A DNA stretch of 64,000 nt from positions 1,924 to 65,923 of the forward strand of contig CAVTFR010000012.1 in assembly GCA_963734025.1 (NCBI GenBank), given 5' to 3'. This stretch comes from an uncultured Thermoleophilaceae bacterium (GTDB lineage: Bacteria > Actinomycetota > Thermoleophilia > Solirubrobacterales > Thermoleophilaceae). Positions 5,622-64,000 of the stretch are shown piece by piece. Numbering within the stretch: position 1 is the first letter of the stretch; every line of letters begins with the position of its first letter. The translations under genes were made by a program, and so were the position numbers. The notes beneath the pieces are model-generated. The model was given only the letters and a program-made list of their open reading frames with translations, searched no databases and was not told the origin of the DNA.

Positions 5622-7280
5622 ATGGGGCGGGGGCGTGGCTCCCGGTCGGTCGGGGCCGTCAAGGCCGTCTTCGCTAACTTCGAGCTCCGGCGGGTCGAGC
5701 TCGCGTACCTCCTCTTCTACATCGCGAGGTGGGGGATGCGGGTTGCCATCCTCGTCTTCGCGTACGAGCGCGGGGGCGTTGCAGAGGCCAGCCTCGTCGC
5801 GGTGATCATGGAGGTGCCGGCGGCGATCGTCGCCCCGATGGCGTCGGTGATCGGCGACGAGGTCCGCCGGGATCGAGCACTGCTCGCCGGATACGTGGCC
5901 CAGTCCGTGGCCCTCGCGGGAACCGCCACTGCGATCTACGCGGACGCGCCGGTCGCCATCGTGTACGCGTTGACCGCGGTCGCGACGGGATGCATGACGC
6001 TGACGCGTCCGGTGCAGTCGGCGCTGCTCCCGGTGCTCGCGCACTCGCCCGATCAGCTCGTCGCAGCGAACGTCGTCGCCGGGTCGATCTCCGCCGCGAT
6101 GGCGTTCGTGGGCCCGGTCACATCGGGCGTCCTGCTCGGGCTCGGCGGAGCGGGGCTCGCGATGGCCGCTTTCAGCGGGCTGCTCCTGGCCTCCGCGCTG
6201 CTCGTCACCCGTCTCGAACCACATCCACCGTCAGCCCGGATCGGCGGTCACCCCTTCCACGAGGCCGCTGCCGGGTTCCGCGCGGTCGCTCGGGAGCCGG
6301 ACCAGCGTCTGGTGGTGGGCCTCCTCGTCGGCCAGTCGTTCGTCCGTGGGGCGGTGGACGTGTTGGTGGTCGTCGTCGCACTGGAACTCTTCGGGCTGCC
6401 GTCCTCGGCCGTCGGGTTCCTCGCGTCGGCGGTTGGGGCCGGGGGACTGCTCGGCTCGCTGTGGGGGCTGCGGCTGGTCGGCAGGCCCCGACTCGCCGCG
6501 GCGCTGGCGCTCGGTCTCCTCGTCTACGGGTTCGGGATCGCGGCCCTCTCGCTCGCGGTGGTGGCTGCGATGGCCTTCGCGATCCTCGTCGGCGCCGGGT
6601 CCGGGTATGCCCTCGCCGACATGTCCGGACGGACCCTCCTCCAGCGCATCGTGCCCGACGCGATCCTGGCCCGGGTGTTCGGCGTGCTCGAGGGACTCCA
6701 TCAGGTGGGCGTCGCCGCGGGGTCCGCCGTCGCGCCGCTCCTGATAGCCGTCTTCGGTATTCGCGGAGGAAGCCTCGTCGCCGGGCTCCTGCTGCCCACG
6801 GCGATCCTGATCCTGCAGGGGCGGATCCGCGGCCTGGACGATCGCGCGACGCCGATCCCCGAGCGCGAGCTCAGGGTCCTGCGTTCGGTGGACGCGTTCG
6901 CCTTGTTGCCCGCCCCTGAACTAGAGGGGCTCGCCGCCCGACTCACGGAGAAGACCGCGACGCCCGGCGCCGCCATCGTGCGGCAGGGAGCGACCGCCAA
7001 GCAGTTCTACGTCGTCGAGGAAGGCGAGGTGGAGGTCGTCCGAGACGGTCGGATCGTGGGCACGCTCGGCCCCGGCGACTACTTCGGGGAGGTCGCGCTT
7101 CTCCGACACCTCCCGAGGACGGCGACCGTGGTCGCGAAGACAGCGGTGACGGTCCTCGTGCTCGAACGCGAGGACTACCTCGAGGAGCTCACGCGTCACC
7201 CCGTCATGCGCGAGGTTGCCGACGAGACCGTCCGGGAACGCCAACCGAAAGACGAGGGAACCGCCCCGTCGCGGGACTGA
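5622..7280 (+). CDS. MFS transporter fused to a C-terminal cyclic-nucleotide-binding domain
   Basis: ORF 5526..7280 with an internal ATG at 5622. About 12 hydrophobic segments are followed by LRSVDAFALLP...FYVVEEGEVEVV...GPGDYFGEVALL...RTATVVA (cNMP-binding fold). Confidence 0.8.
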   Translation: MGRGRGSRSVGAVKAVFANFELRRVELAYLLFYIARWGMRVAILVFAYERGGVAEASLVAVIMEVPAAIVAPMASVIGDEVRRDRALLAGYVAQSVALAGTATAIYADAPVAIVYALTAVATGCMTLTRPVQSALLPVLAHSPDQLVAANVVAGSISAAMAFVGPVTSGVLLGLGGAGLAMAAFSGLLLASALLVTRLEPHPPSARIGGHPFHEAAAGFRAVAREPDQRLVVGLLVGQSFVRGAVDVLVVVVALELFGLPSSAVGFLASAVGAGGLLGSLWGLRLVGRPRLAAALALGLLVYGFGIAALSLAVVAAMAFAILVGAGSGYALADMSGRTLLQRIVPDAILARVFGVLEGLHQVGVAAGSAVAPLLIAVFGIRGGSLVAGLLLPTAILILQGRIRGLDDRATPIPERELRVLRSVDAFALLPAPELEGLAARLTEKTATPGAAIVRQGATAKQFYVVEEGEVEVVRDGRIVGTLGPGDYFGEVALLRHLPRTATVVAKTAVTVLVLEREDYLEELTRHPVMREVADETVRERQPKDEGTAPSRD

Positions 7281-7425
7281 CGCCACTCGGAGAGAGCTCG
7301 ACCGCCCGGACGGGTGTCGTCGTCCTTCCCGGCATGCCGAAACGGCCGGCGGGCACCCGGTGCAGCAGTCCCGGCGGTTTCCCAGGGGGCGCAGGGGGTG
7401 TTCCTCCCCACCGGCGGGGAGCAGC

Positions 7426-8206
7426 TCAGACGAACGTCACCTGACCGGCGAACTCCGGTAGGTCATCGCGCAAGCGGCGGGCGTACTCCTCCGGCAAGAA
7501 GATTCGGTACATCTCATCGACCGCGAACTCCACGTGTCCAAGGATGCGCCATTCACGTTCCATGTAGAAGTTCTGCGGATCCTCATCCGACGTGGAGGCG
7601 TCGAACGGCTTCAGGAACGCGAAGACGTGGAAGAAGAGGAAGTTTCGGAGGTCCGAGACCCGGAGCGAGTCGTGACTCTCTGTACCCCAGGGCGCACCGC
7701 GTTGACCGGACGGCCCGGCTTTTCCGAACTGAAGCTCTCGAAGCAGCTCAAGCGCGGCCCGCAGCCCGGTGTCGAATATCTGCTCGCGTGGGGCTCTCTG
7801 CAAAACCGAGCGAAGTCATCAGCGAATCGACGGGCGCTCGATCGTCCAGATAGAAGACCGGCCTTGCCCCGCGTGCGACGAGGAAATCCTTTCGGAAGGG
7901 AAAGGCCGAAGCGGCTGTACTTCGTGGTATGTATCCCGAGGTCCTCCACCGGGATATCGCAGAAGCACACACGGCTTGCCTGGACCTTCTCAGCCACCGA
8001 CTCGTCCGGGTTGATTCGAAGTTCGATGCCAGGCGGGATGGGAGTCCCGTCTTCCTCAGTCGCTCCGGTGACACTCCCCCTGGTGCCAACAGGGTTCCGG
8101 AACGGACGTTCTTGACGAGGGTGTCGTACTGCTCGGGTTCTGGCTTGCCCTGACCGGCGAAATGGGACAACTCCTTCGAGACGTACCGCTGCTGCAACGA
8201 GGTCAC
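7426..8206 (-). pseudogene. AbiGi-like abortive-infection protein, multiply frameshifted
   Basis: Pieces lie in three minus-strand frames:
- VTSLQQRYVSKELSHFAGQGKPEPEQYDTLVKNVRSGTLL (frame of ORF 7748..8275, GTG at 8206)
- INPDESVAEKVQASRVCFCDIPVEDLGIHTTKYSRFGLS (frame of ORF 7611..7997)
- FPFRKDFLVARGARPVFYLDD (back in the first frame)
- LRNFLFFHVFAFLKPFD...NFYMEREWRILG (ORF 7426..7803)
The CFCDIP, KYSxFG and EREWR motifs are typical of AbiGi-type proteins. Confidence 0.55.
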
Positions 8207-8475
8207 TGCGTCGCCATGCTGGCGAGTGCTCCGGCTGGACCTGCGTTCTCTGCGGAACCCCACCGAGGCGATCATGGTGAGCGCCGCGTCAGAGGGCGTG
8301 CGGCCGCCAGGACGGCCTGGCGCGGCGTCGGCCTTCCCTGCGGGCGAGAGTCCCCCCCGCCGCCGTCTACTCGACAGCCCCGTGACGGCGGCCTCATCTG
8401 CGTGTCGCCTCCCAACCGATCCCGCCCGGCTGCTCTAGCGGCCGCAGTTCCTCGGCGTCGTGCTGGCGCGTCGGG

Positions 8476-9099
8476 TCATCCTCGACATGCGGGTGTCGAC
8501 GCATCCAATCCCGGAATCGGCGTGGTCGGGACGACCCGCTCCCGCCACGAAGCCAGCACCTCCAGGGCGTCATCTGCCAGCCGGAGCGGGACGGGCTGTC
8601 GCCCGCGTCGTAGCCTGCGGTGGAACCACCCCTCGCTCCTCGCCATCGTCCGATAGGCGCGGATCTTCCGGCTCGCCTCGTCGCGGTACTCGCGAAGTGC
8701 CTGGCGCATCAGCCTTTGGATGCGATTCACGAACGCCCCGGAATACTCCTGCGATCCGGGCTTGATCCCCTCATCGAGCCGTCTCTCGACCTCGGGCTGG
8801 GCGACATCCTCGATGATCCCGAGTCGCGCCAGGTTCAGCGCCCGGTAGATCTCGGCGTTCAGCTGCTCCCCTCGGTCACGGACCCAGCGGATCAGGTCCG
8901 TGTTGAACGCCTCCGCTCTGGCGTCGTGATCGGCGACCTCGCCGGGGATCGCCGCCCCCCGGAGCGCGAGCCCTACTGCTACGCCGTCAGGATGGGGACC
9001 AATAGCTTGTCCCCCGCACAGGACACCGCCTCGGCTATGCAGAGCGCGCCCACGCGTTTCGTCCCCGCGTAAACCCCGCGCTCGGGTGAGGTCGCGCAT
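8476..9099 (-). CDS. hypothetical protein
   Basis: Inside ORF 8476..9306. The ATG at 9099 is preceded by AGGAG with a 5-nt spacer. No motif recognised. Same orientation as, and upstream of, the AbiGi-like pseudogene. Confidence 0.4.
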   Translation of the reverse strand: MRDLTRARGLRGDETRGRALHSRGGVLCGGQAIGPHPDGVAVGLALRGAAIPGEVADHDARAEAFNTDLIRWVRDRGEQLNAEIYRALNLARLGIIEDVAQPEVERRLDEGIKPGSQEYSGAFVNRIQRLMRQALREYRDEASRKIRAYRTMARSEGWFHRRLRRGRQPVPLRLADDALEVLASWRERVVPTTPIPGLDASTPACRG

Positions 9100-9160
9100 G
9101 GCGACTCCTAGCGTGTCGGCCGCGGCTGAGATAGGGTGACGCGTTTGGGAGTAGGCCGCC

Positions 9161-9976
9161 ATGGAACTCTGGCTTGCCGCGTTGATCATCCTTGGTGTCG
9201 CCGTGCTGAGCGCGGCCGGCATGCTCCTCGTCCGTCGGCGCGCGCCGGCGGGAACGTTCTTCAACGATCCGATTCCGGGTGGTGCCGTGTACACGGTGGC
9301 GGGCACCGCCTACATGGTGATCCTCGCATTCGTCTTCTTCATCGCATTCGAGAGCTACGGCGGCGCCAAGGCCGACGCCGAGGAGGAGGCGACCGCGACG
9401 CTCGCGATGTTCCACGCCGCCGGCGCCTTCGGCCCGGCGGCCCGCGCGGAGCTGCAGGGGCAGATGATCTGCTATGCGCGCGAGGTGATCTCGGACGGCT
9501 GGCCCGCGATGCGGGAAGGCGGAGGGAGTTCGGTAGTGGACGCGAGGGTCTCGGCGATGGAGGAGTCCGCCGAACAGATCCCGGTCAACGACGCTAAACA
9601 GGCCGCCGCGTTTGAACACTGGTTCGCGTTGAACGAGGAGCGGCGACATGGACGGCAGGGCCGGATCGGCGAAGCAGAAGGGTTGGTGCCCCCGGTTGTC
9701 TGGTTGATCCTGATCATCGGCGCGGTGGTGGTGATCGCCTCGGTCGCGCTTTTCGCGGATCGTGAGGAGGCCGCAGTTACGCAGGCAGCACTGGCCGCCG
9801 CGATCGCGATCATCGTCGTCTCGGGGCTGGTCCTGGTGCGATTTCTCGACAAGCCGTATGAGGACAAGAGCGGCAGCATCAAACCGACGGCGATGGAGAG
9901 GACGCTGGTGTCGATGGAGATGGAGCATCGGGAGCGCGGTGGAGCGGTCATCCGGTGCGGCGACCTAGCCGGCTGA
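9161..9976 (+). CDS. DUF4239-type (bestrophin-like) membrane protein
   Basis: ORF 9161..9976. It has an N-terminal TM segment, FIAFESYGGAKADAEEEATATLAMF..., CYAREVISDGWPAM, and two C-terminal TM segments, the pattern of the DUF4239 family. Confidence 0.6.
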   Translation: MELWLAALIILGVAVLSAAGMLLVRRRAPAGTFFNDPIPGGAVYTVAGTAYMVILAFVFFIAFESYGGAKADAEEEATATLAMFHAAGAFGPAARAELQGQMICYAREVISDGWPAMREGGGSSVVDARVSAMEESAEQIPVNDAKQAAAFEHWFALNEERRHGRQGRIGEAEGLVPPVVWLILIIGAVVVIASVALFADREEAAVTQAALAAAIAIIVVSGLVLVRFLDKPYEDKSGSIKPTAMERTLVSMEMEHRERGGAVIRCGDLAG

Positions 9977-10207
9977 GAGAGAACTGCGTCCCGACCGGCT
10001 AGCCGCACCGTGCATCCCGCGCGCGGGGGCTATACACAGGGTGTGGTCGGACGCTTCGCCTGACGCGCGGCCGCTTCCCCGGCCCCTGCTTTCCACGCAA
10101 AGCGGGCGTCCGCCGCACCGTCCCTTTTCGGCGATCAAGCACGCGATCGATGTCTCATCGGCGACGGCCTCGTCATCAGTGCGCCGGGCAGCGGGGTCCT
10201 ACAGGAC

Positions 10208-56673: not shown

Positions 56674-57153
56674 CCCTGGCTGACTGCCGTCTTCATCGTG
56701 CTCTCCGCGTGGTGGGTCAAGGGGCCGCTGCTCGTGGGGCTTGGGCTGTGCTCCGACCTGCGCCGCCGGCGCCTGCCGCTCGCCTTCGCTGCGGCCGCGG
56801 TTGCCGTGGGTGCCGCGTCGCTCGCGTCCGACCTGCTCAAGCAGGCCTTTGACCGCGCCCGCCCGCCCGAGCTCGATCCCACGCTCGGATCGCTCACGGC
56901 GCTGCCCGACAACGCCTCGTTCCCGTCCGGCCACAGCGCCACCGCCTTCGCGGCCGCCACCGCCGTGGCCATCATCAGCCCGCGCCTGCGCTTCTGGGCG
57001 CTCGGGATCGCCGCCGCCGTGGCGCTCTCGCGGCTCTACCTGCGCGTGCACTTCCCGCTCGACGTCGCGGCCGGGGCCCTGCTCGGCGCCGGCCTCGGCG
57101 CCCTGTGCGCGCTCGTCGCGCTGCGCCTCGTCCGGCCCCCGGCCACCTCCTGA
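56614..57153 (+). CDS. PAP2-family lipid phosphate phosphatase (stand-alone)
   Basis: Inside ORF 56065..57153, ATG at 56614. It has all three PAP2 motifs: KQAFDRARP, FPSGH and SRLYLRVHFPLDV. Confidence 0.75.
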   Translation: MAFLLDLDRALIEAAPAFEHPWLTAVFIVLSAWWVKGPLLVGLGLCSDLRRRRLPLAFAAAAVAVGAASLASDLLKQAFDRARPPELDPTLGSLTALPDNASFPSGHSATAFAAATAVAIISPRLRFWALGIAAAVALSRLYLRVHFPLDVAAGALLGAGLGALCALVALRLVRPPATS

Positions 57154-57261
57154 CCGCAGCCCCCTCTCGATGAGGCGCTGTCGGCTGTTGCGGATCCGTT
57201 CCATCGTTCGAGGGTTATCGAAGTGTTAGCTACCGAGGTTAGTCACCGCTTGGCGTAGGTT

Positions 57262-58302
57262 GTGTGCGCCGTGTCACTCAACTTCGGCGTAACCGTCCTG
57301 CCCGACCCGCCCTATCAGCGCCTGATCGAGCTGCTGCAACTGGCTGAGCGCGAGGGCTTCGAGTACGGCTGGACCTACGACTCGCACGTCCTATGGCAGG
57401 ACTCGATTCCGACGCTGGCGCTGGCCGCGAAGGCAACCGAGCGAATCAAGCTCGGGCACATGGTCACGAACCCCGGCACGCGCGAGCCGACCGTCGTGGC
57501 GAGCGCCTACGCGACGCTCCAGGACATCTCCGAAGGGCGGATGGTGATGGGCATCGGGCGCGGCGACTCGGCGCGGCGCTACATCGGCCAGCAGCCGGTG
57601 AAGGTCGCTCGCTTCGAGGCGGCGCTACGGATGATCAAGCCGTTCATGAACGGCGAGAAGGTGCACTGGAACGACACGGACATCGAGCTCGCCTGGGTGC
57701 GGCCCGAGCTGCCGCCGATCGAGATGCACGTGGCGGGCTACGGGCCGCGGGTGCTAGCGGTGGCGGGACGGGTCGGCGACGGTGTGATCATCCAGCTCGC
57801 CGACCCGGACATCATCCGCTGGACGATGGAGACCGCGCGCGCGGCGGCCGCCGAGGCGGGCCGCGACCCAGCCGCGCTCAAATGCATCGTCTGCGCGCCG
57901 AGCCACATCTCGAACGACCTCACGGCCGCCCGGGAGCAGGTGCGCTGGTTCCCGGCGATGGTGTCGAACCACGTTCGCGACCTGATCGCCCGCTACGGCG
58001 CCGACGGGCAGGTCGTCCCGCGCGCGCTGACCGATTACGTGCCGGCCGAGACGGGCTACGACTACGACGAGCACTCGCGCGTCGGCGCCCGCCACGGCGC
58101 GTTCGTGAGCGACGAGATCTGCGACCGCTTCTGCGTGCTCGGAACGCCCGAGCAGGCCGCCGCGAAGCTGGCCGAGCTCGAATCGATCGGCGTCGACCAG
58201 TTCAACATCTATCTCATGACAGAAGGCCAGGAGCGCACGCTCGAGACCTACGGGCGGGAGATCATCCCGCGCTTCGCCGGCGTGACTGGAGGTACAGAAT
58301 GA
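57262..58302 (+). CDS. LLM-class (putatively F420-dependent) oxidoreductase of the type found next to hydantoinases
   Basis: ORF 57262..58302 (GTG start). FGVTVLPDPPYQRLIELLQLAEREGFEYGWTYDSH...VTNPGTREPTV...MGIGRGDSA. Confidence 0.8.
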   Translation: MCAVSLNFGVTVLPDPPYQRLIELLQLAEREGFEYGWTYDSHVLWQDSIPTLALAAKATERIKLGHMVTNPGTREPTVVASAYATLQDISEGRMVMGIGRGDSARRYIGQQPVKVARFEAALRMIKPFMNGEKVHWNDTDIELAWVRPELPPIEMHVAGYGPRVLAVAGRVGDGVIIQLADPDIIRWTMETARAAAAEAGRDPAALKCIVCAPSHISNDLTAAREQVRWFPAMVSNHVRDLIARYGADGQVVPRALTDYVPAETGYDYDEHSRVGARHGAFVSDEICDRFCVLGTPEQAAAKLAELESIGVDQFNIYLMTEGQERTLETYGREIIPRFAGVTGGTE

Positions 58303-59684
58303 GGACGCTCATCCAGGGCGGAACGGTGGTCGGAGCCGACCACGAGACGAGTGCCGACGTGCTCATCGACGGCGAGGAGATTGCCGCCGTAGGGGCGCTC
58401 GGCGAGGTGGAGGCGGAGGTCGTCGACGCGAGCGGCTGCTACGTCCTGCCCGGCCTGATCGACAACCACACCCACATGGCGATGCCGTTCGGCGGGACGG
58501 TCTCGATCGACAACTACGACACGGGCACGCGCGCAGCCGCGGCCGGGGGCACGACCTGCATCGTCGACTTCGTAATCCAGCAGCACCCGGGCGGCCTGCG
58601 CTCCTCGCTCGAGGAATGGCAGGAGCGCGCCGCCGGCGCCGCGCACGTGGACTACGGCTTCCACGTGGCGATCACCCAGGCCGACGACGCCACGCTCGAC
58701 GACATGGGGCCGATGGTCGAGGAGGGCATCTGCTCGTTCAAGGTCTTCCTCGCCTACAAGGGCGCGATCATGGTCACGGACGACCTGTTCTTCCGCGTGC
58801 TCGAGAACACGCGCGACCTCGGCGCGCTCACGATGGTCCACTGCGAGAACGGCTGGGCGATCGACGTGCTGGTCGAGCGCGCGCTGGCGGCCGGCCAGAT
58901 CGAGCCGATCTACCACGCTCACACTCGGCCGGAGGAGCTCGAGGCCGAGGCGACGAGCCGCTCCGTGCGCTTCGCCGAGCTGACCGGCGCGAGCGTCTAC
59001 ATCGTGCACGTGACCTGCGGCCTCGCTGCCGACGAGATCGCGGCGGGCCAGGCGCGCGGCGTGGACGTCTCGGCAGAGACCTGCCTCCAGTACCTGACCA
59101 ACACGGTCCAGGACCTCGAGCGACCCGACTTCGAGGGAGCGCGCTACGTGTGCTCGCCGCCGCTGCGCGACGCGCATAACCCGGAGCTGTTGTGGGCTGC
59201 GCTGAAGCGCGGCGTGCTTGAGAGCGTCTCGACCGACCACTGCCCGTTCAACAGCGAGCAGAAGGCGCTCGGGCGCGACGACTTCTCGAAGATCCCCAAT
59301 GGCCTCGCGATGATCCAGCACCGGCTCGTCAAGCTGTGGGACCTGGGGGTCGACGGCGGGCGGCTCACGCCCAGCGAGCTCGTCGACCTCACCTCGACCA
59401 CTATCGCCCGCCGCTTCGGGCTGTCGCGGAAGGGTGCCGTGGCGCCCGGTAAGGACGCCGACCTCGTGATCTTCGACCCGGCCACGCCGTTCGAGTTCTC
59501 AACTCGGACCTCGCACATGAACGTCGACTACGACCTGTTCGAGGGCGAGCGCTCCACGGGCAGCGTGCGCCAGACGTACTGCCGCGGCACGCTCGTCTAT
59601 GACCGCGGCGAGATCAAGACGCAGCCCGGGCACGGCCGCTTCGTGCCGCGCTCGCTCGGCGCGCCCGCACCCGTGGCTTCGTGA
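58299..59684 (+). CDS. dihydropyrimidinase / D-hydantoinase
   Basis: The ATG at 58299 overlaps the upstream stop (ATGA). VLPGLIDNHTHM...FKVFLAYKG...MVHCENG...VHV...STDHCPF are the metal ligands and carboxylated-Lys context of cyclic amidohydrolases. Confidence 0.9.
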   Translation: MRTLIQGGTVVGADHETSADVLIDGEEIAAVGALGEVEAEVVDASGCYVLPGLIDNHTHMAMPFGGTVSIDNYDTGTRAAAAGGTTCIVDFVIQQHPGGLRSSLEEWQERAAGAAHVDYGFHVAITQADDATLDDMGPMVEEGICSFKVFLAYKGAIMVTDDLFFRVLENTRDLGALTMVHCENGWAIDVLVERALAAGQIEPIYHAHTRPEELEAEATSRSVRFAELTGASVYIVHVTCGLAADEIAAGQARGVDVSAETCLQYLTNTVQDLERPDFEGARYVCSPPLRDAHNPELLWAALKRGVLESVSTDHCPFNSEQKALGRDDFSKIPNGLAMIQHRLVKLWDLGVDGGRLTPSELVDLTSTTIARRFGLSRKGAVAPGKDADLVIFDPATPFEFSTRTSHMNVDYDLFEGERSTGSVRQTYCRGTLVYDRGEIKTQPGHGRFVPRSLGAPAPVAS

Positions 59685-60932
59685 CGGCTATGGACGCGGA
59701 CCTCGTTCTCGCGGACCTGCGCGAGCTGGCCCGGCTGACCGGCGGGCCCGACGGCGCACGGCGCGTCTGCTGGACGGACGAGTGGGTCAGGGCGCGCGAC
59801 TTCCTACGCTCGCGGCTCGAGGAGCTGCCGGTTGAGATCGAGGTCGATCCTGCCGGCAACCTCTGGGCCGACCTGCCGGGCGACGGCGAGGGCTTCGTGA
59901 TCGTCGGCTCGCACATCGACTCCGTGCCGGCGGGCGGCTGGCTCGACGGCGCGCTCGGGATCCTCAGCGCGGTGGGCGCGCTGCGCGCGCACGCCGATGG
60001 GCGCCCGCCGGTACGCCTGCGGCTCGTCGACTGGGCCGACGAGGAGGGCGCGCGCTTCGGCCGCAGCCTGTTCGGGTCGTCCGCCTGTGCGGGCACGCTC
60101 GAGGTCGACGATGTGCGTGATCTGCGCGACCGCGACGGCGAGCGGCTCGAGGACGTGGTCGCCCGCCACGGCGTCGAACTCGACCGGGTGCACGAGTCCG
60201 GCGGCCCAGCTGCGCGGGGCCTGCGCCTACCTGGAGCTCCACATCGAGCAGGGGCCCGTGCTCGAGAGCCGCGGCGAGCCGGCGGCGACGGTGCTCGGCA
60301 CCTGCGGCGTCGAGCGTCACGTAGCGGTCTTCACGGGCCAGGCCGCGCACGCCGGCGCCACCCCGATGGAGCTGCGCCGCGACAGCTTCGCCGCCACGGC
60401 CCAGGCCGCGCTCGCGATCCGCGAGATCGGCCTCAGCCACGAGGGCGGCGTGTGCACAGTCGGCGGGGCGACGAGCGAGCCGGGCGTCGTCACGGCGGTC
60501 GCGGGCCGGACCGAGATGCTGCTCGACCAGCGCCACCTCGACCCGGACGAGCTCGCCACGATGCTCGCCGAAGCGCGCCAGGCGTGCGAGCAGGCCGCCG
60601 CCGACCAGGGCTGCGAGGTCGAGCTGCGTCACCTGTGGTCGATCCCGCCGATCCCCTTCGATGAGCGCCTGATCGCCTCCGCGCGCGAGGCCGTGCAGGA
60701 ATCGGGCGGCACGGACACCGCCATCCCGAGCGGGCCGCTCCACGACGCCGCCGAGATGGCGCGGCTGATCCCGACCGTGATGATCTTCTCGTCCTCCTCG
60801 CCGCCGGTGTCGCACACGAAGGAGGAGGACACGCCGGAGGCCGACCTGCGCGTGGCGATCGAGGCCTACGGCCGCACCGTCGACGCCACGCTCGGCCGCG
60901 CGGCCGCGGGCGAGCTCACGCCGCACGGGTGA
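59681..60932 (+). pseudogene. N-carbamoyl-amino-acid / allantoate amidohydrolase (M20 family) interrupted by one frameshift
   Basis: ORF 59681..60664 reads well up to ...GVELDRVHESG (GSHIDSVPAGGWLDGALG, WADEEGARFG). The sequence then continues in ORF 59997..60932 from AAQLRGACAYLELHIEQGPVLE...GQAAHAGATPM...HDAAEMA. The break is in the GGCGGCCC run near 60195-60205. It could be a sequencing indel. Confidence 0.8.
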
Positions 60933-62200
60933 GGGCGCTCCAGGAGCAGCTCGAGTACCTCGAGGCCGCGAGCCCGTTCTACCGCGAGCGCCTGCGCGGA
61001 GTGCGCGAGCAGGTGCGCGAGCCGGCCGACCTCGCCCGGCTGCCGTTCACCACCAAGGAGGAGCTGCGCGAGGGCCAGCGCGCGCAACCGCCCTTCGGCC
61101 CCCAGCTGTGCGCCCCGCCCGAGCGACTGGTGCGCATGCATGTGACCTCCGGCACGACAGGCGAGCCGGTGGCGGTCGGCTTCACGCGCGCCGACCACGA
61201 GGCCAACAGCGCGGTCGGCGGCGAGGCGTTCCGGATCGCCGGCGTGCGGCCCGACGACGTGGTCGCGCACTGCCTCAACTACGCCCTCTACGCCGGTGGC
61301 ATCGCCGACCACATGGCGCTCGAGTCGAGCGGCGCGACGGTGGTGCCGGTCGGCACCGGCCAGTCGCGGCGCCTGCTCGACCTGATTCCGCGGCTCGGCA
61401 TCACGGCGCTCTTCGGGACGCTTTCGTTCCCGGCCTACCTGGCCGGGCGGGCGCGCGAGGAAGGCATCGAGCCGCGCGAGCTCGGGCTGCGTCACATCGT
61501 CACCGCCGGCGAGCCGGGCGCGGGGCTCGCCGCCGTCCGCGCGGAGATCGAAGAGGCCTGGGGCGCGAGCGTGGCGGACACGTTCGGCATGTCCGACGTC
61601 TGGTCGACGATGGGCGGCGCTTGCGGCGAGGGCGAGGGCCTCCACCTGACCACCGCCGGGCACGCTGTACCCGAGCTGGTCGACCCGGTCAGCGGCGAGT
61701 CCCTGCCGCTCGAGGACGGGGCGGGCGGCGAGCTGGTCTGGACGCACCTGAGGCGCGAGGCCTCGCCGCTCCTGCGCTACCGCTCCGGCGACCTCGCGCA
61801 GGTCTGGACGTCGCCCTGCAGCTGTGGCCGCGAATCGCTGCGCATCCGCGTCGACGGACGCCGCGACGACATGTTGCGCGTCCAGGCTGTGAACGTCTAC
61901 CCGCAGGCGATCGCCGCTCTGCTGGAGGCCGATGCCCGCTTCGGCCGCCACTGCGTGGTCGCCCACGGCGACCCCGTCGTGCCACCGGTCGAGGTCTACG
62001 TCGAGGCGGCGCGGGAGGTCGAGCTCGACGGCCTCGCCCAGCGCCTCCACGAGGCGCTGCGGGTGCGCTTCGCGGTCACGCGCCTCGACCCCGGCTCTCT
62101 GCCCGTGGCCGAGCAGAAGACACGCATCATCCACCGGACCGCACGCGGCGACGAGCTGCCGCCTGCGGTCGAGAGCCTGAGGAGAGAGACAGCCCCATGA
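60929..62200 (+). CDS. phenylacetate-CoA ligase-like (PaaK / F390-synthetase family) adenylate-forming enzyme
   Basis: ORF 60929..62200. The GTG overlaps the upstream stop (GTGA). LPFTTKEELRE...MHVTSGTTGEP...YRSGDL...GRRDDML. Confidence 0.8.
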   Translation: MRALQEQLEYLEAASPFYRERLRGVREQVREPADLARLPFTTKEELREGQRAQPPFGPQLCAPPERLVRMHVTSGTTGEPVAVGFTRADHEANSAVGGEAFRIAGVRPDDVVAHCLNYALYAGGIADHMALESSGATVVPVGTGQSRRLLDLIPRLGITALFGTLSFPAYLAGRAREEGIEPRELGLRHIVTAGEPGAGLAAVRAEIEEAWGASVADTFGMSDVWSTMGGACGEGEGLHLTTAGHAVPELVDPVSGESLPLEDGAGGELVWTHLRREASPLLRYRSGDLAQVWTSPCSCGRESLRIRVDGRRDDMLRVQAVNVYPQAIAALLEADARFGRHCVVAHGDPVVPPVEVYVEAAREVELDGLAQRLHEALRVRFAVTRLDPGSLPVAEQKTRIIHRTARGDELPPAVESLRRETAP

Positions 62201-62952
62201 CCGTGACCACGAGCGATCAGGGCGCCGCGAGGGTCGTCAGCTGGGACCGCCAGGAGCGCCGCAACGCCTGGGACCTCGAGACGATGACCCAGGTCGCCGA
62301 TGCCGTGGAGGCGGCGGGCGCCGACGCGGCGGTCCGCTGCGTCGTCCTGCGTGGCGCCGGCGAGCACTTCTCCGCGGGCGACGACCTGCAGGCGGCGATC
62401 GAGGCCGACAGCAGCGCCTGGGCGGCCACGATCGAGGCGTTCCAGCGCATGACCCGCGTCGTCCTCGCCAGCCCGCTGCCCGTGATCGCGGCGGTGGACG
62501 GCGTCTGCGTGGGCGGCGCTCTCGAGTTCGCGGCGAGCTGTGACGTCCGCCTCTGCACCGACCGCATCCGCGTGCTCACCCCGGAGGTCGGCATCGGTCT
62601 CGTGGCAAGCAACGCCGGCACGCTCTTCCTTCCGGAGGTACTCGGCGAGACCGGGGCCCGCGAGCTGCTGCTCGGCGGGCAGGAACGCGACGCTGCCTGG
62701 GCGCGGAAGCGCGGCTTCGCCACGGAGATGGTCGCGCCCGACGAGCTCGACGCGCGCATCGCCCACTGGGCCGAGGTCTTCGCGGGCAACTCCCGCGACG
62801 CCCTCGCGGCGACGAAGGCGATGCTGAACGAGCGCTTCGGCGATCTGGTCGGCGCGGCAATGGAGCGCGAGACGCACCACTGCGTGCGCCTCTTCGACGA
62901 GCCCGACGCGCGGACGGCGCTCGGCGAGTTCGCGAATCGCCGCCGGGTCTAG
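62197..62952 (+). CDS. enoyl-CoA hydratase/isomerase (crotonase) family protein
   Basis: The ATG at 62197 overlaps the upstream stop (ATGA). VVLRGAGEHFSAGDDL...IAAVDGVCVGGALEFAASCDVR. Confidence 0.85.
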   Translation: MTVTTSDQGAARVVSWDRQERRNAWDLETMTQVADAVEAAGADAAVRCVVLRGAGEHFSAGDDLQAAIEADSSAWAATIEAFQRMTRVVLASPLPVIAAVDGVCVGGALEFAASCDVRLCTDRIRVLTPEVGIGLVASNAGTLFLPEVLGETGARELLLGGQERDAAWARKRGFATEMVAPDELDARIAHWAEVFAGNSRDALAATKAMLNERFGDLVGAAMERETHHCVRLFDEPDARTALGEFANRRRV

Positions 62953-63446
62953 ACGACGTACTCCATCAGCAGCTCGTCCTCCCACTCGCCCCTGACCTCG
63001 TTGAGGTTCGACCTGCGCGTGACGCCGACCGCGCGAAAGCCGACCTTCTCGTAGACGCGGATCGCGCGCACGTTGTCGACCGCGGTCGAGAGCGTGATCC
63101 GGTGGTGGCCGCGCTCCTCGGTCAGGTGCCGCACGATCAGCCGCATCGCCTCCGTGCCGAGGCCGCGGCCCTGGTGCTCGGGGCCGAGGAAGATGTCCAC
63201 GTCCGCGTAGCGGCTGCCGGGATCGGTCTCCTCCCAGAACTGGATTGCGCCGACCGGCTCGCCGTCCACGGTGATCGCGAAGCGCTCGATGTCGGGCTCG
63301 GGCCCGAGCGGCCAGTTGTCGGGAGGCGGGTCCCACCAGCGCGCCACCTCAGGATCGGCACGGAGCTCGCGCAGGCGCTCGGCATGCTCGGGCCGGACCG
63401 GCTCGACCTGGAGTCGCCCACCGCTCACCGGGTACCTTGAAGACAT
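62949..63446 (-). CDS. GNAT family N-acetyltransferase
   Basis: Inside ORF 62949..63611, ATG at 63446. EHQGRGLGTEAMRLIVRHL...AVDNVRAIRVYEKVGF. Confidence 0.8.
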   Translation of the reverse strand: MSSRYPVSGGRLQVEPVRPEHAERLRELRADPEVARWWDPPPDNWPLGPEPDIERFAITVDGEPVGAIQFWEETDPGSRYADVDIFLGPEHQGRGLGTEAMRLIVRHLTEERGHHRITLSTAVDNVRAIRVYEKVGFRAVGVTRRSNLNEVRGEWEDELLMEYVV

Positions 63447-64000
63447 GGCCGACAACGTAAACCGACTGCTAGAGATCGAGGCCTTCGGGCAGGCGATCTG
63501 GATCGACAACCTGAACCGCCAGCTGCTCGACGACGGCGGGCTCGAGCGGCTGATCGCCGAGGACGGCCTCACCGGCGTGACTTCGAACCCCACCATCTTC
63601 GAGAAGGGCATGGGCCACTCGGACCGCTACGACGACGCCTTCCGCGAGGCCGCCCGCGAGACGGACGACCCGCAGGAGATCTTCGAGCGGCTCGCCTACG
63701 AGGACGTCCGCGACGCGGCCGACCTGCTGCGGCCCGTGTTCGAGGAGACGAAGGGTCAGGACGGCTACGTCTCCTTCGAGCTGCCGGCGTCGCTCGCCTT
63801 CGACAGCGAGGGCTCGGTCGCCGAGGCTCAGCGGCACCGTGAGGCGATCGACCGTCCGAACGTGCTGATCAAGGTGCCCGGCACCGAGCCGGGCGTGCGC
63901 GCGTTCTGTGAACTCACCGCGCTCGGGGTCAACGTGAACGTCACGCTCCTGTTCGCCGTGCAGCGCTACCGCGAGATCGCGGAGGCGTTCCTGCGCGGGC
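63445..64000 (+). CDS. tal: transaldolase (actinobacterial long type), 3' end cut by the window
   Basis: My own translation from the ATG at 63445 reads MADNVNRLLEIEAFGQAIWIDNLNRQLLDDGGLERLIAEDGLTGVTSNPTIFEKG...GYVSFELPA...NVLIKVPGT. It is absent from the ORF track because no stop occurs before the window end. Confidence 0.85.
   Translation, partial: MADNVNRLLEIEAFGQAIWIDNLNRQLLDDGGLERLIAEDGLTGVTSNPTIFEKGMGHSDRYDDAFREAARETDDPQEIFERLAYEDVRDAADLLRPVFEETKGQDGYVSFELPASLAFDSEGSVAEAQRHREAIDRPNVLIKVPGTEPGVRAFCELTALGVNVNVTLLFAVQRYREIAEAFLRG

Follow-up and report, generated by a model that had tools for sequence, protein, structure and literature searches.

A candidate F420-dependent pyrimidine reductase in a probably composite five-gene operon of Thermoleophilaceae

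Do genes that overlap from one end of an operon to the other necessarily encode one pathway? The question is raised by five genes at positions 57262-62952 of the window, by which we mean the whole 64,000-nucleotide stretch analysed here, taken from contig CAVTFR010000012.1 of an uncultured Thermoleophilaceae bacterium. They encode an oxidoreductase of the luciferase-like (LLM) class, a dihydropyrimidinase or D-hydantoinase (HYD), a hydantoinase/carbamoylase-family amidase (CARB), an acid-CoA ligase (LIG) and a crotonase-fold enoyl-CoA hydratase (ECH). A preliminary description of the sequence had proposed a single variant pathway, in which the LLM enzyme reduces a pyrimidine ring and LIG and ECH carry the released amino acid onward. 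Our analysis suggests that the operon is instead probably a composite, in which a pyrimidine/hydantoin ring-opening module, with the LLM enzyme most likely as its first step, is joined to an older and autonomous LIG-ECH module. We conclude that this is a known pathway varied, not a new kind of system, and that the added ligase and hydratase are best interpreted as an operon graft found in one genus only.

The operon and the absence of a classical reductase

The window is high-G+C DNA (70-75% G+C around the site) from a genome assembly of 4.27 Mb in 21 contigs, 93.7% complete, whose closest relatives are soil metagenome-assembled genomes (MAGs) labelled Thermoleophilaceae. The open reading frame map, Pfam and NCBIfam place all five genes on the + strand with the coordinates first reported: the LLM gene at 57262-58302 (TIGR03842, a candidate F420H2-dependent uracil/thymine reductase), HYD at 58299-59684 (a PydB-type cyclic amidohydrolase, TIGR02033), CARB at 59681-60932 (an M20-family, PydC-like beta-ureidopropionase or N-carbamoyl-amino-acid amidohydrolase, read in two frames), LIG at 60929-62200 (an adenylate-forming ligase of the PaaK/F390-synthetase family, Pfam AMP-binding) and ECH at 62197-62952 (Pfam ECH_1). 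Each junction is a 4-nt start/stop overlap, found at exactly the positions described before (ATGA 58299-58302, GTGA 59681-59684, GTGA 60929-60932 and ATGA 62197-62200), and Shine-Dalgarno-like GGAGG/AGGAG runs precede both ATG starts. The five-gene set is kept in about 35 related Thermoleophilaceae genomes, and the 4-nt overlaps recur among relatives' loci (LLM/HYD in 31 of 33, HYD/CARB in 23 of 33, CARB/LIG in 34 of 37 and LIG/ECH in 61 of 77), the one between CARB and LIG persisting across many different flanks. The sole non-coding room for a promoter of the five genes is the upstream spacer at 56976-57261, recognised from the open reading frame map and a dip in G+C, which extends toward a divergent lipid-kinase cluster. 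Sigma-70, terminator and inverted-repeat scans of 56900-63400 gave no match and are uninformative for a high-G+C lineage. The overlaps indicate one transcription unit, in which the five genes would be co-transcribed, and possible translational coupling; the strict co-translation read from them earlier is too strong. Overlaps of 4 bases are the usual junction in compact operons of the source genome.

The two ring-opening genes are ordinary members of their families. HYD matches the TIGR02033 equivalog at 533 bits (cut-off 393), with residues 4-451 aligned to model positions 2-454, and is the only copy in the genome above that cut-off. PydB- and PydC-type genes are thus present and adjacent as genes 2 and 3, the PydC being of the M20 and not the CN-hydrolase type. 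A PreA/PydA-type dihydropyrimidine dehydrogenase is absent from the source genome as assembled (93.7% complete), where the top PreA score was 112 against 335. The only DHO_dh-family genes there encode two dihydroorotate dehydrogenases, a quinone-dependent PyrD of class 2 and a PyrD of class 1B accompanied by PyrK (G000, C15:251219-252115 and C15:289799-290638), and PyrD-1B and PyrK sit in the pyr region, near pyrC. The earlier remark that no classical dihydropyrimidine dehydrogenase is present therefore holds for the genome as well as for the operon.

The luciferase-like enzyme as candidate reductase

Which enzyme, then, could supply the dihydropyrimidine? The LLM protein matches TIGR03842 at 417 bits (cut-off 295) over model positions 1-328 of 329, and Pfam Bac_luciferase at 203 bits, in agreement with its first description as a luciferase-like, probably F420- or flavin-dependent oxidoreductase. 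Because the TIGR03842 match begins only at residue 7, the true start may be GTG 57271 instead of 57262. Among solved structures, F420-dependent Mer enzymes come closest (131 bits for 1f07), and the protein lies far under the Mer equivalog cut-offs (165 vs 276 and 153 vs 349 bits). The source genome encodes CofD (286 bits, cut-off 257) and so can make F420, which the LLM enzyme probably uses. NCBIfam labels TIGR03842 itself a 'hypoth_equivalog'.

To place the family in the phylum, the profile lists of 401 Actinomycetota genomes, each at least 90% complete, were cross-tabulated by hand. TIGR03842 was above cut-off in 88 genomes, belonging to 48 of 254 genera, and 85 of these 88 also carry a dihydropyrimidinase; the three that do not are assemblies of 350-600 contigs. 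Dihydropyrimidinase is common in the sample (122 genomes) and its usual feeding enzyme, the PreA-type dihydropyrimidine dehydrogenase, almost never present (2 genomes), a gap that the LLM enzyme would fill in 70% of cases. CofD (E <= 1e-60) was found in 240 genomes, comprising 84 of the 88 with TIGR03842 versus 156 of the 313 others. These tallies include some genomes flagged as unpublished (G237, G168, G268, G316, G371, G394 and others in the CofD list), from which no locus was fetched and whose removal shifts the counts by a handful at most. The CofD-less genomes with both TIGR03842 and dihydropyrimidinase (G274, G333, G479 and G510) all belong to family f21; either their CofD is divergent or unassembled, or their LLM enzyme is not strictly F420-dependent.

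Gene neighbourhoods point the same way. Among 20 TIGR03842 loci sampled from 17 families, 18 have a dihydropyrimidinase homologue within 8 kb of the LLM gene, often directly adjoining it. Recurrent partners are a CN-hydrolase (14 loci), for which an M20 carbamoylase is the alternative, a class-III aminotransferase (11) and a CoA-acylating methylmalonate-semialdehyde dehydrogenase (MMSDH; 9 loci, with the cluster MMSDH scoring 681 bits against TIGR01722); an NCS1 nucleobase permease or ABC importer also recurs. In other Actinomycetota, then, the same LLM gene keeps company with genes of the extended Pyd pathway, namely those for the aminotransferase, MMSDH and a nucleobase permease. Every step of that pathway has a conventional candidate except the first, and the LLM enzyme is the only conserved oxidoreductase without a role, which makes it the best candidate for the reductase. 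The ring-reducing function given to it in the preliminary description is therefore likely, as TIGR03842 and dihydropyrimidinase coincide in genomes, in loci and in clusters that hold all other steps. We regard it as well supported by these profile and context data that the TIGR03842 enzyme is the best candidate for an F420H2-dependent uracil/thymine reductase replacing dihydropyrimidine dehydrogenase. In two class-level relatives, L112 and L113, whose LLM is 76% identical to that of the window and whose clusters have no aminotransferase, a conserved protein of 378-380 residues with no NCBIfam match lies between carbamoylase and LLM (L112:6811-7947, L113:9042-10184).

In the reaction that we propose, uracil or thymine would accept a hydride at C6 from F420H2, with the LLM enzyme as catalyst and the 5,6-dihydropyrimidine as product; normally the unrelated PydA/PreTA dihydropyrimidine dehydrogenase carries out this step. 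HYD would then open the dihydropyrimidine ring, and CARB would free NH3, CO2 and beta-alanine or beta-aminoisobutyrate. Delivery of hydride from F420H2 to C6 of uracil would be chemically ordinary for F420. Mer, the F420-dependent methylene-tetrahydromethanopterin reductase, is of the same fold and cofactor class and likewise uses F420H2 as the hydride donor for a carbon attached to a ring nitrogen, but Actinomycetota do not use methanopterin and the context of the LLM gene is pyrimidine catabolism. Compared with the canonical Pyd pathway (PydA or PreT/PreA, PydB, PydC), steps 2 and 3 are assigned here to the usual families, whereas the Fe-S flavoprotein dihydropyrimidine dehydrogenase, which resembles dihydroorotate dehydrogenase, would be replaced by a TIM-barrel luciferase-like F420-class enzyme of unrelated fold and cofactor.

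We found no description of an F420-dependent pyrimidine reductase in the literature searched, and an F420-type LLM enzyme standing in for dihydropyrimidine dehydrogenase is, as far as we found, undescribed. Two reported systems resemble it in idea. In mureidomycin biosynthesis, genetic evidence shows that reduction of the C5-C6 bond of the uracil ring depends on an F420/FMN-type oxidoreductase (SSGG-03002/NpsU of mureidomycin/napsamycin) (PMC10714638), and a reductive uric-acid cluster of Chloroflexota has a putative reductase of the F420 luciferase family in place of YgfK/UacX, which is like dihydropyrimidine dehydrogenase (PMC12507026). Both would be deazaflavin- or flavin-type substitutes for such a reductase of a uracil-like ring, encoded beside cyclic amidohydrolases; they differ from the LLM enzyme in pathway and substrate, a nucleoside antibiotic and a purine-derived ring, respectively. 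In M. smegmatis, GlnR binds at the genes of the dihydropyrimidinase MSMEG_3996 and the neighbouring carbamoylase MSMEG_3995, and nitrogen limitation induces them (PMC3662644). Should the proposed role prove correct, Streptomyces-, Mycobacterium- and Microbacterium-like bacteria would be using F420 for central nitrogen scavenging, a family that is widespread but still called a 'hypothetical equivalog' could be named, and biocatalysis would gain a new uracil reductase that is insensitive to oxygen and free of Fe-S clusters.

The ligase-crotonase pair and the origin of the operon

Pfam and NCBIfam bear out the families first proposed for the last two gene products, a PaaK/F390-type adenylate-forming ligase and an enoyl-CoA hydratase, and both fall under every NCBIfam equivalog cut-off. 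LIG is not a true PaaK (NF041878, 236 vs 700 bits; TIGR02155, 193 vs 646), an assignment that the context also contradicts, with no paa ring-oxygenase genes in the window operon or among the annotated neighbours at 11 LIG-ECH loci. Nor is it an F390 synthetase, tempting as that would be beside an F420 enzyme (94 bits, cut-off 459). Its best solved relatives, 2-hydroxyisobutyryl-CoA synthetase (HCL; 6hdw, 182 bits) and PaaK (2y4o, 178 bits), score so similarly that small aliphatic and aryl-acetic acids are both possible substrates. LIG belongs to the same short adenylate-forming ligase family as these two enzymes but, unlike PaaK and HCL, is encoded without paa ring-oxygenase or acyl-CoA mutase genes nearby. 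Its N terminus is about 27 residues shorter than in relatives of 40-50% identity, and a large protein search returned close relatives only. ECH (Pfam ECH_1, 127 bits) contains GGALE and TPE, both catalytic-glutamate motifs, at what are presumably the positions expected from rat enoyl-CoA hydratase; it matches many hydratase structures at 80-90 bits, none of which stands out, with 3-hydroxypropionyl-CoA dehydratase among the top matches. The pairing of LIG with a CoA-ester enzyme argues for CoA-ligase chemistry, and the pair would activate a carboxylic acid and hydrate or dehydrate its CoA ester. Feruloyl-CoA synthetase with hydroxycinnamoyl-CoA hydratase-lyase, and acrylate ligase with acryloyl-CoA hydratase, are two-gene modules of comparable design; there, as in LIG-ECH, a ligase is followed by a crotonase and the module is mobile between contexts, although the ligase subfamily differs.

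Does this pair belong with the ring-opening genes that precede it? In 80 loci with LIG relatives of 63-91% identity (genes labelled by tblastn), a crotonase lies directly 3' of LIG in essentially all, LLM-HYD-CARB lies upstream in only about 37, and at least 33 carry LIG-ECH without LLM, HYD or CARB. Neighbours of the stand-alone pair include an EamA transporter, a BBE-type FAD oxidase, FtsH, an ArsA-like ATPase, a carboxyltransferase, inositol-phosphate synthase with lipid genes, LeuRS, GltB and acyl-CoA dehydrogenase with an HMGL-like lyase; no consistent third partner was found among the annotated loci. Distant relatives of LIG (40-50% identity) in Gaiellaceae, Ktedonobacteraceae, Chloroflexia, Rokubacteria and alphaproteobacteria also have a crotonase immediately downstream and unrelated neighbours. 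In a sample of 151 genomes of the order, LIG orthologues (E <= 1e-90) were limited to the window's genus: 16 of its 17 genomes have one, a single copy each, and the 54 other genera sampled have none. TIGR03842 occurs in 11 of the 17, about 3.6 kb from LIG wherever both are on one contig, and 5 of the 16 LIG-bearing congeners lack it anywhere in the genome. The co-occurrence of the five genes, which the preliminary description had proposed to check, is thus real in the window's genus and confined to it. LIG-ECH was present in 0 of the 20 TIGR03842 clusters sampled elsewhere in the phylum, where aminotransferase and MMSDH take its downstream place. A pair that is older, occurs alone and is absent from all 20 other loci lends no support to the pathway continuation first suggested. 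The case named at the outset as refuting that suggestion, a ligase and hydratase belonging to an unrelated downstream unit, is encountered in evolution, but the window leaves no room for a separate intergenic promoter.

A BBE-type FAD-linked oxidase accompanies the pair in a Solirubrobacteraceae-labelled locus (L056:9996-11378) and in a Chloroflexia locus (L121:8140-9546), and at L126 it is preceded by genes for an HMG-CoA-lyase-like protein and an acyl-CoA dehydrogenase. Neighbours of this kind may hint at the substrate of the pair. At cassette-free loci the start of the pair overlaps the stop of the gene upstream, an EamA transporter gene (L056:7108-7998/7995) or FtsH (L082:6031-7986/7983), and LIG-ECH seems habitually to ride on a neighbour's transcript.

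In a LIG tree, built by a quick tree search, a single clade of 43 (Shimodaira-Hasegawa-like approximate likelihood ratio test, SH-aLRT, 95) takes in every one of the 32 five-gene copies, and all deeper lineages stand alone. Six copies without the cassette are nested in this clade as well, as is L037, a remnant with CARB-LIG-ECH; at another locus, L057, the upstream flank is as in L035 and L040 but the cassette is missing. A short branch (0.071) leads to the clade and each genome has a single LIG copy, so that nothing suggests that the pair was re-tooled. In the simplest scenario, which we propose, LLM-HYD-CARB would have been inserted once, directly upstream of the older LIG-ECH, in the ancestor of one Thermoleophilaceae genus, and the five genes would then have been inherited vertically, with a few losses, as one overlapping transcription unit. 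Such a fusion would be a catabolic cassette grafted onto an existing operon, and a warning that a tightly overlapped operon is not always one pathway.

The remnant L037 (CAVTGV010000003.1, about 6751-10009) holds CARB-LIG-ECH without LLM-HYD, and L041 and L042 have the same flanks with only LIG-ECH; L037 looks like a half-decayed cassette. Two MAGs each carry two diverged whole operons, L024 with L087 (CAWBLN01) and L039 with L040 (JBEVKF01), with ligases 80% and 86% identical to that of the window; these are either real duplicates or the product of strain-mixed bins.

Competing explanations and the carbamoylase frame break

One other explanation for the first three genes is a Hyu-like cluster, serving hydantoin utilisation, whose substrates would be 5-substituted hydantoins or some other cyclic ureide and not pyrimidines, with the LLM enzyme acting on a side chain or on an unrelated substrate. 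D-hydantoinases and dihydropyrimidinases form one family, the M20 amidase scores much the same against the models for allantoate amidohydrolase, L-carbamoylase and ErtE, below the cut-off each time, and the operon has no transporter or regulator that would name the substrate. We nevertheless consider this function very unlikely, since the downstream enzymes next to other LLM-hydantoinase pairs are of the beta-alanine type and NCS1 nucleobase permeases lie there too, the operon showed no hydantoin racemase, and a free-standing hydantoinase with no source of dihydropyrimidine would leave the co-occurrence with TIGR03842 unexplained. It is highly improbable, in our judgement, that the LLM enzyme has a downstream or accessory redox function (as an F420H2-dependent malonate-semialdehyde reductase or a methylene-folate-type reductase) while a moonlighting enzyme of the dihydroorotate dehydrogenase family reduces uracil. 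Characterised F420-dependent LLM enzymes are indeed mostly alcohol/carbonyl or Mer-type reductases, and class 2 and class 1B PyrD are available in the genome; however, the window operon, L112 and L113 keep LLM although no aminotransferase supplies the semialdehyde, and the place of PyrD-1B and PyrK near pyrC is a biosynthetic setting.

The explanation closest to the preliminary description is a single five-step pathway, in which LIG would form beta-alanyl-CoA or beta-aminoisobutyryl-CoA and ECH would eliminate ammonia and/or hydrate acryloyl- or methacrylyl-CoA, the two replacing aminotransferase and semialdehyde dehydrogenase. Unlike the extended Pyd clusters, the window operon contains neither of these enzymes and has the CoA ligase and crotonase fused on in the place that they occupy elsewhere, and for the cluster-type aminotransferase a close orthologue is lacking from the source genome, whose best match reaches 35-36% identity. 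The 4-nt CARB/LIG overlap is held in 34 of 37 loci with diverse flanks, L037 retains CARB-LIG-ECH after the loss of LLM-HYD, the best solved relative of LIG uses a small aliphatic acid, 2-hydroxyisobutyrate, and 3-hydroxypropionyl-CoA dehydratase is near the top for ECH. The history of the pair, in contrast, makes such a pathway unlikely: LIG-ECH predates the cassette, persists without it (in 5 of 16 congeners and at least 33 loci), accompanies no other TIGR03842 cluster (0 of 20) and, with one copy and a short branch, bears no sign of re-specialisation; the genome also has a bona fide MMSDH elsewhere (593 bits). To our knowledge there is no crotonase-fold beta-aminoacyl-CoA ammonia-lyase, and the fold of ECH presumably differs from that of the Clostridium propionicum-type beta-alanyl-CoA ammonia-lyase. 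It is accordingly rather doubtful that the acid activated by LIG is the beta-amino acid freed by CARB, and quite unlikely that the operon encodes a complete aminotransferase-free route, from F420H2-dependent reduction and ring opening to activation by LIG and deamination/hydration on CoA by ECH. If true, that route would comprise a new crotonase-fold beta-aminoacyl-CoA ammonia-lyase as well as a new F420-dependent dihydropyrimidine dehydrogenase.

Several points weigh against the composite operon with LLM as pyrimidine reductase, which is the reading that we favour. We know of no enzyme activity for any TIGR03842 member, four LLM-positive genomes lack CofD at E <= 1e-60, and in clusters with an aminotransferase the LLM enzyme could reduce malonate semialdehyde. 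Both TIGR03842 and PreA are missing from 37 of the 122 dihydropyrimidinase genomes (G521 excepted), so other solutions or other hydantoinase roles exist, and counts of related genomes are non-independent. A real functional link would also yield a CARB/LIG 4-nt overlap that is stable over more than 30 species. Finally, the carbamoylase is frame-broken in this assembly.

The carbamoylase identity first given to gene 3 (59681-60932) stands, but the gene is not one open frame. Reading from 59681 meets a stop at 60664; the other frame is open only from 59997 and runs to 60932. The N- and C-terminal parts, in their different frames, match consecutive stretches of TIGR01879 and NF006771; the TIGR01879 halves score 102 and 155 bits (cut-off 204), and the window gave no full-length single-frame match. 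In an alignment with four relatives (L009, L016, L010 and L011), each has a single-column gap against the window, which locates one surplus base in GAGTCCGGCGGCCCAG at about 60203-60205, within a +1 frame break at 60197-60207 (one base too many in GGCGGCCC). The gene is intact in relatives of 94-98% identity. Of the 22 loci from 'MFD' MAGs, about 9 show apparent frame breaks within the operon (L018, L020, L021, L025, L029, L047, L049, L085 and L087) versus 0 of 11 loci from other MAGs (L014, L015, L017, L019, L030, L034, L036, L039, L040, L043 and L086). Because the breaks are confined to 'MFD' MAGs, we conclude that the carbamoylase break is probably an assembly indel arising from long-read error. 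The same comparison suggests a systematic indel error rate in 'MFD' assemblies, probably including the genome of the window.

Beyond the operon, a GNAT acetyltransferase gene at 62949-63611 (- strand) is convergent with the crotonase gene, the two gene ends sharing 4 nt; its product resembles a Streptomyces-type AAC(6') (145 bits against a cut-off of 250).

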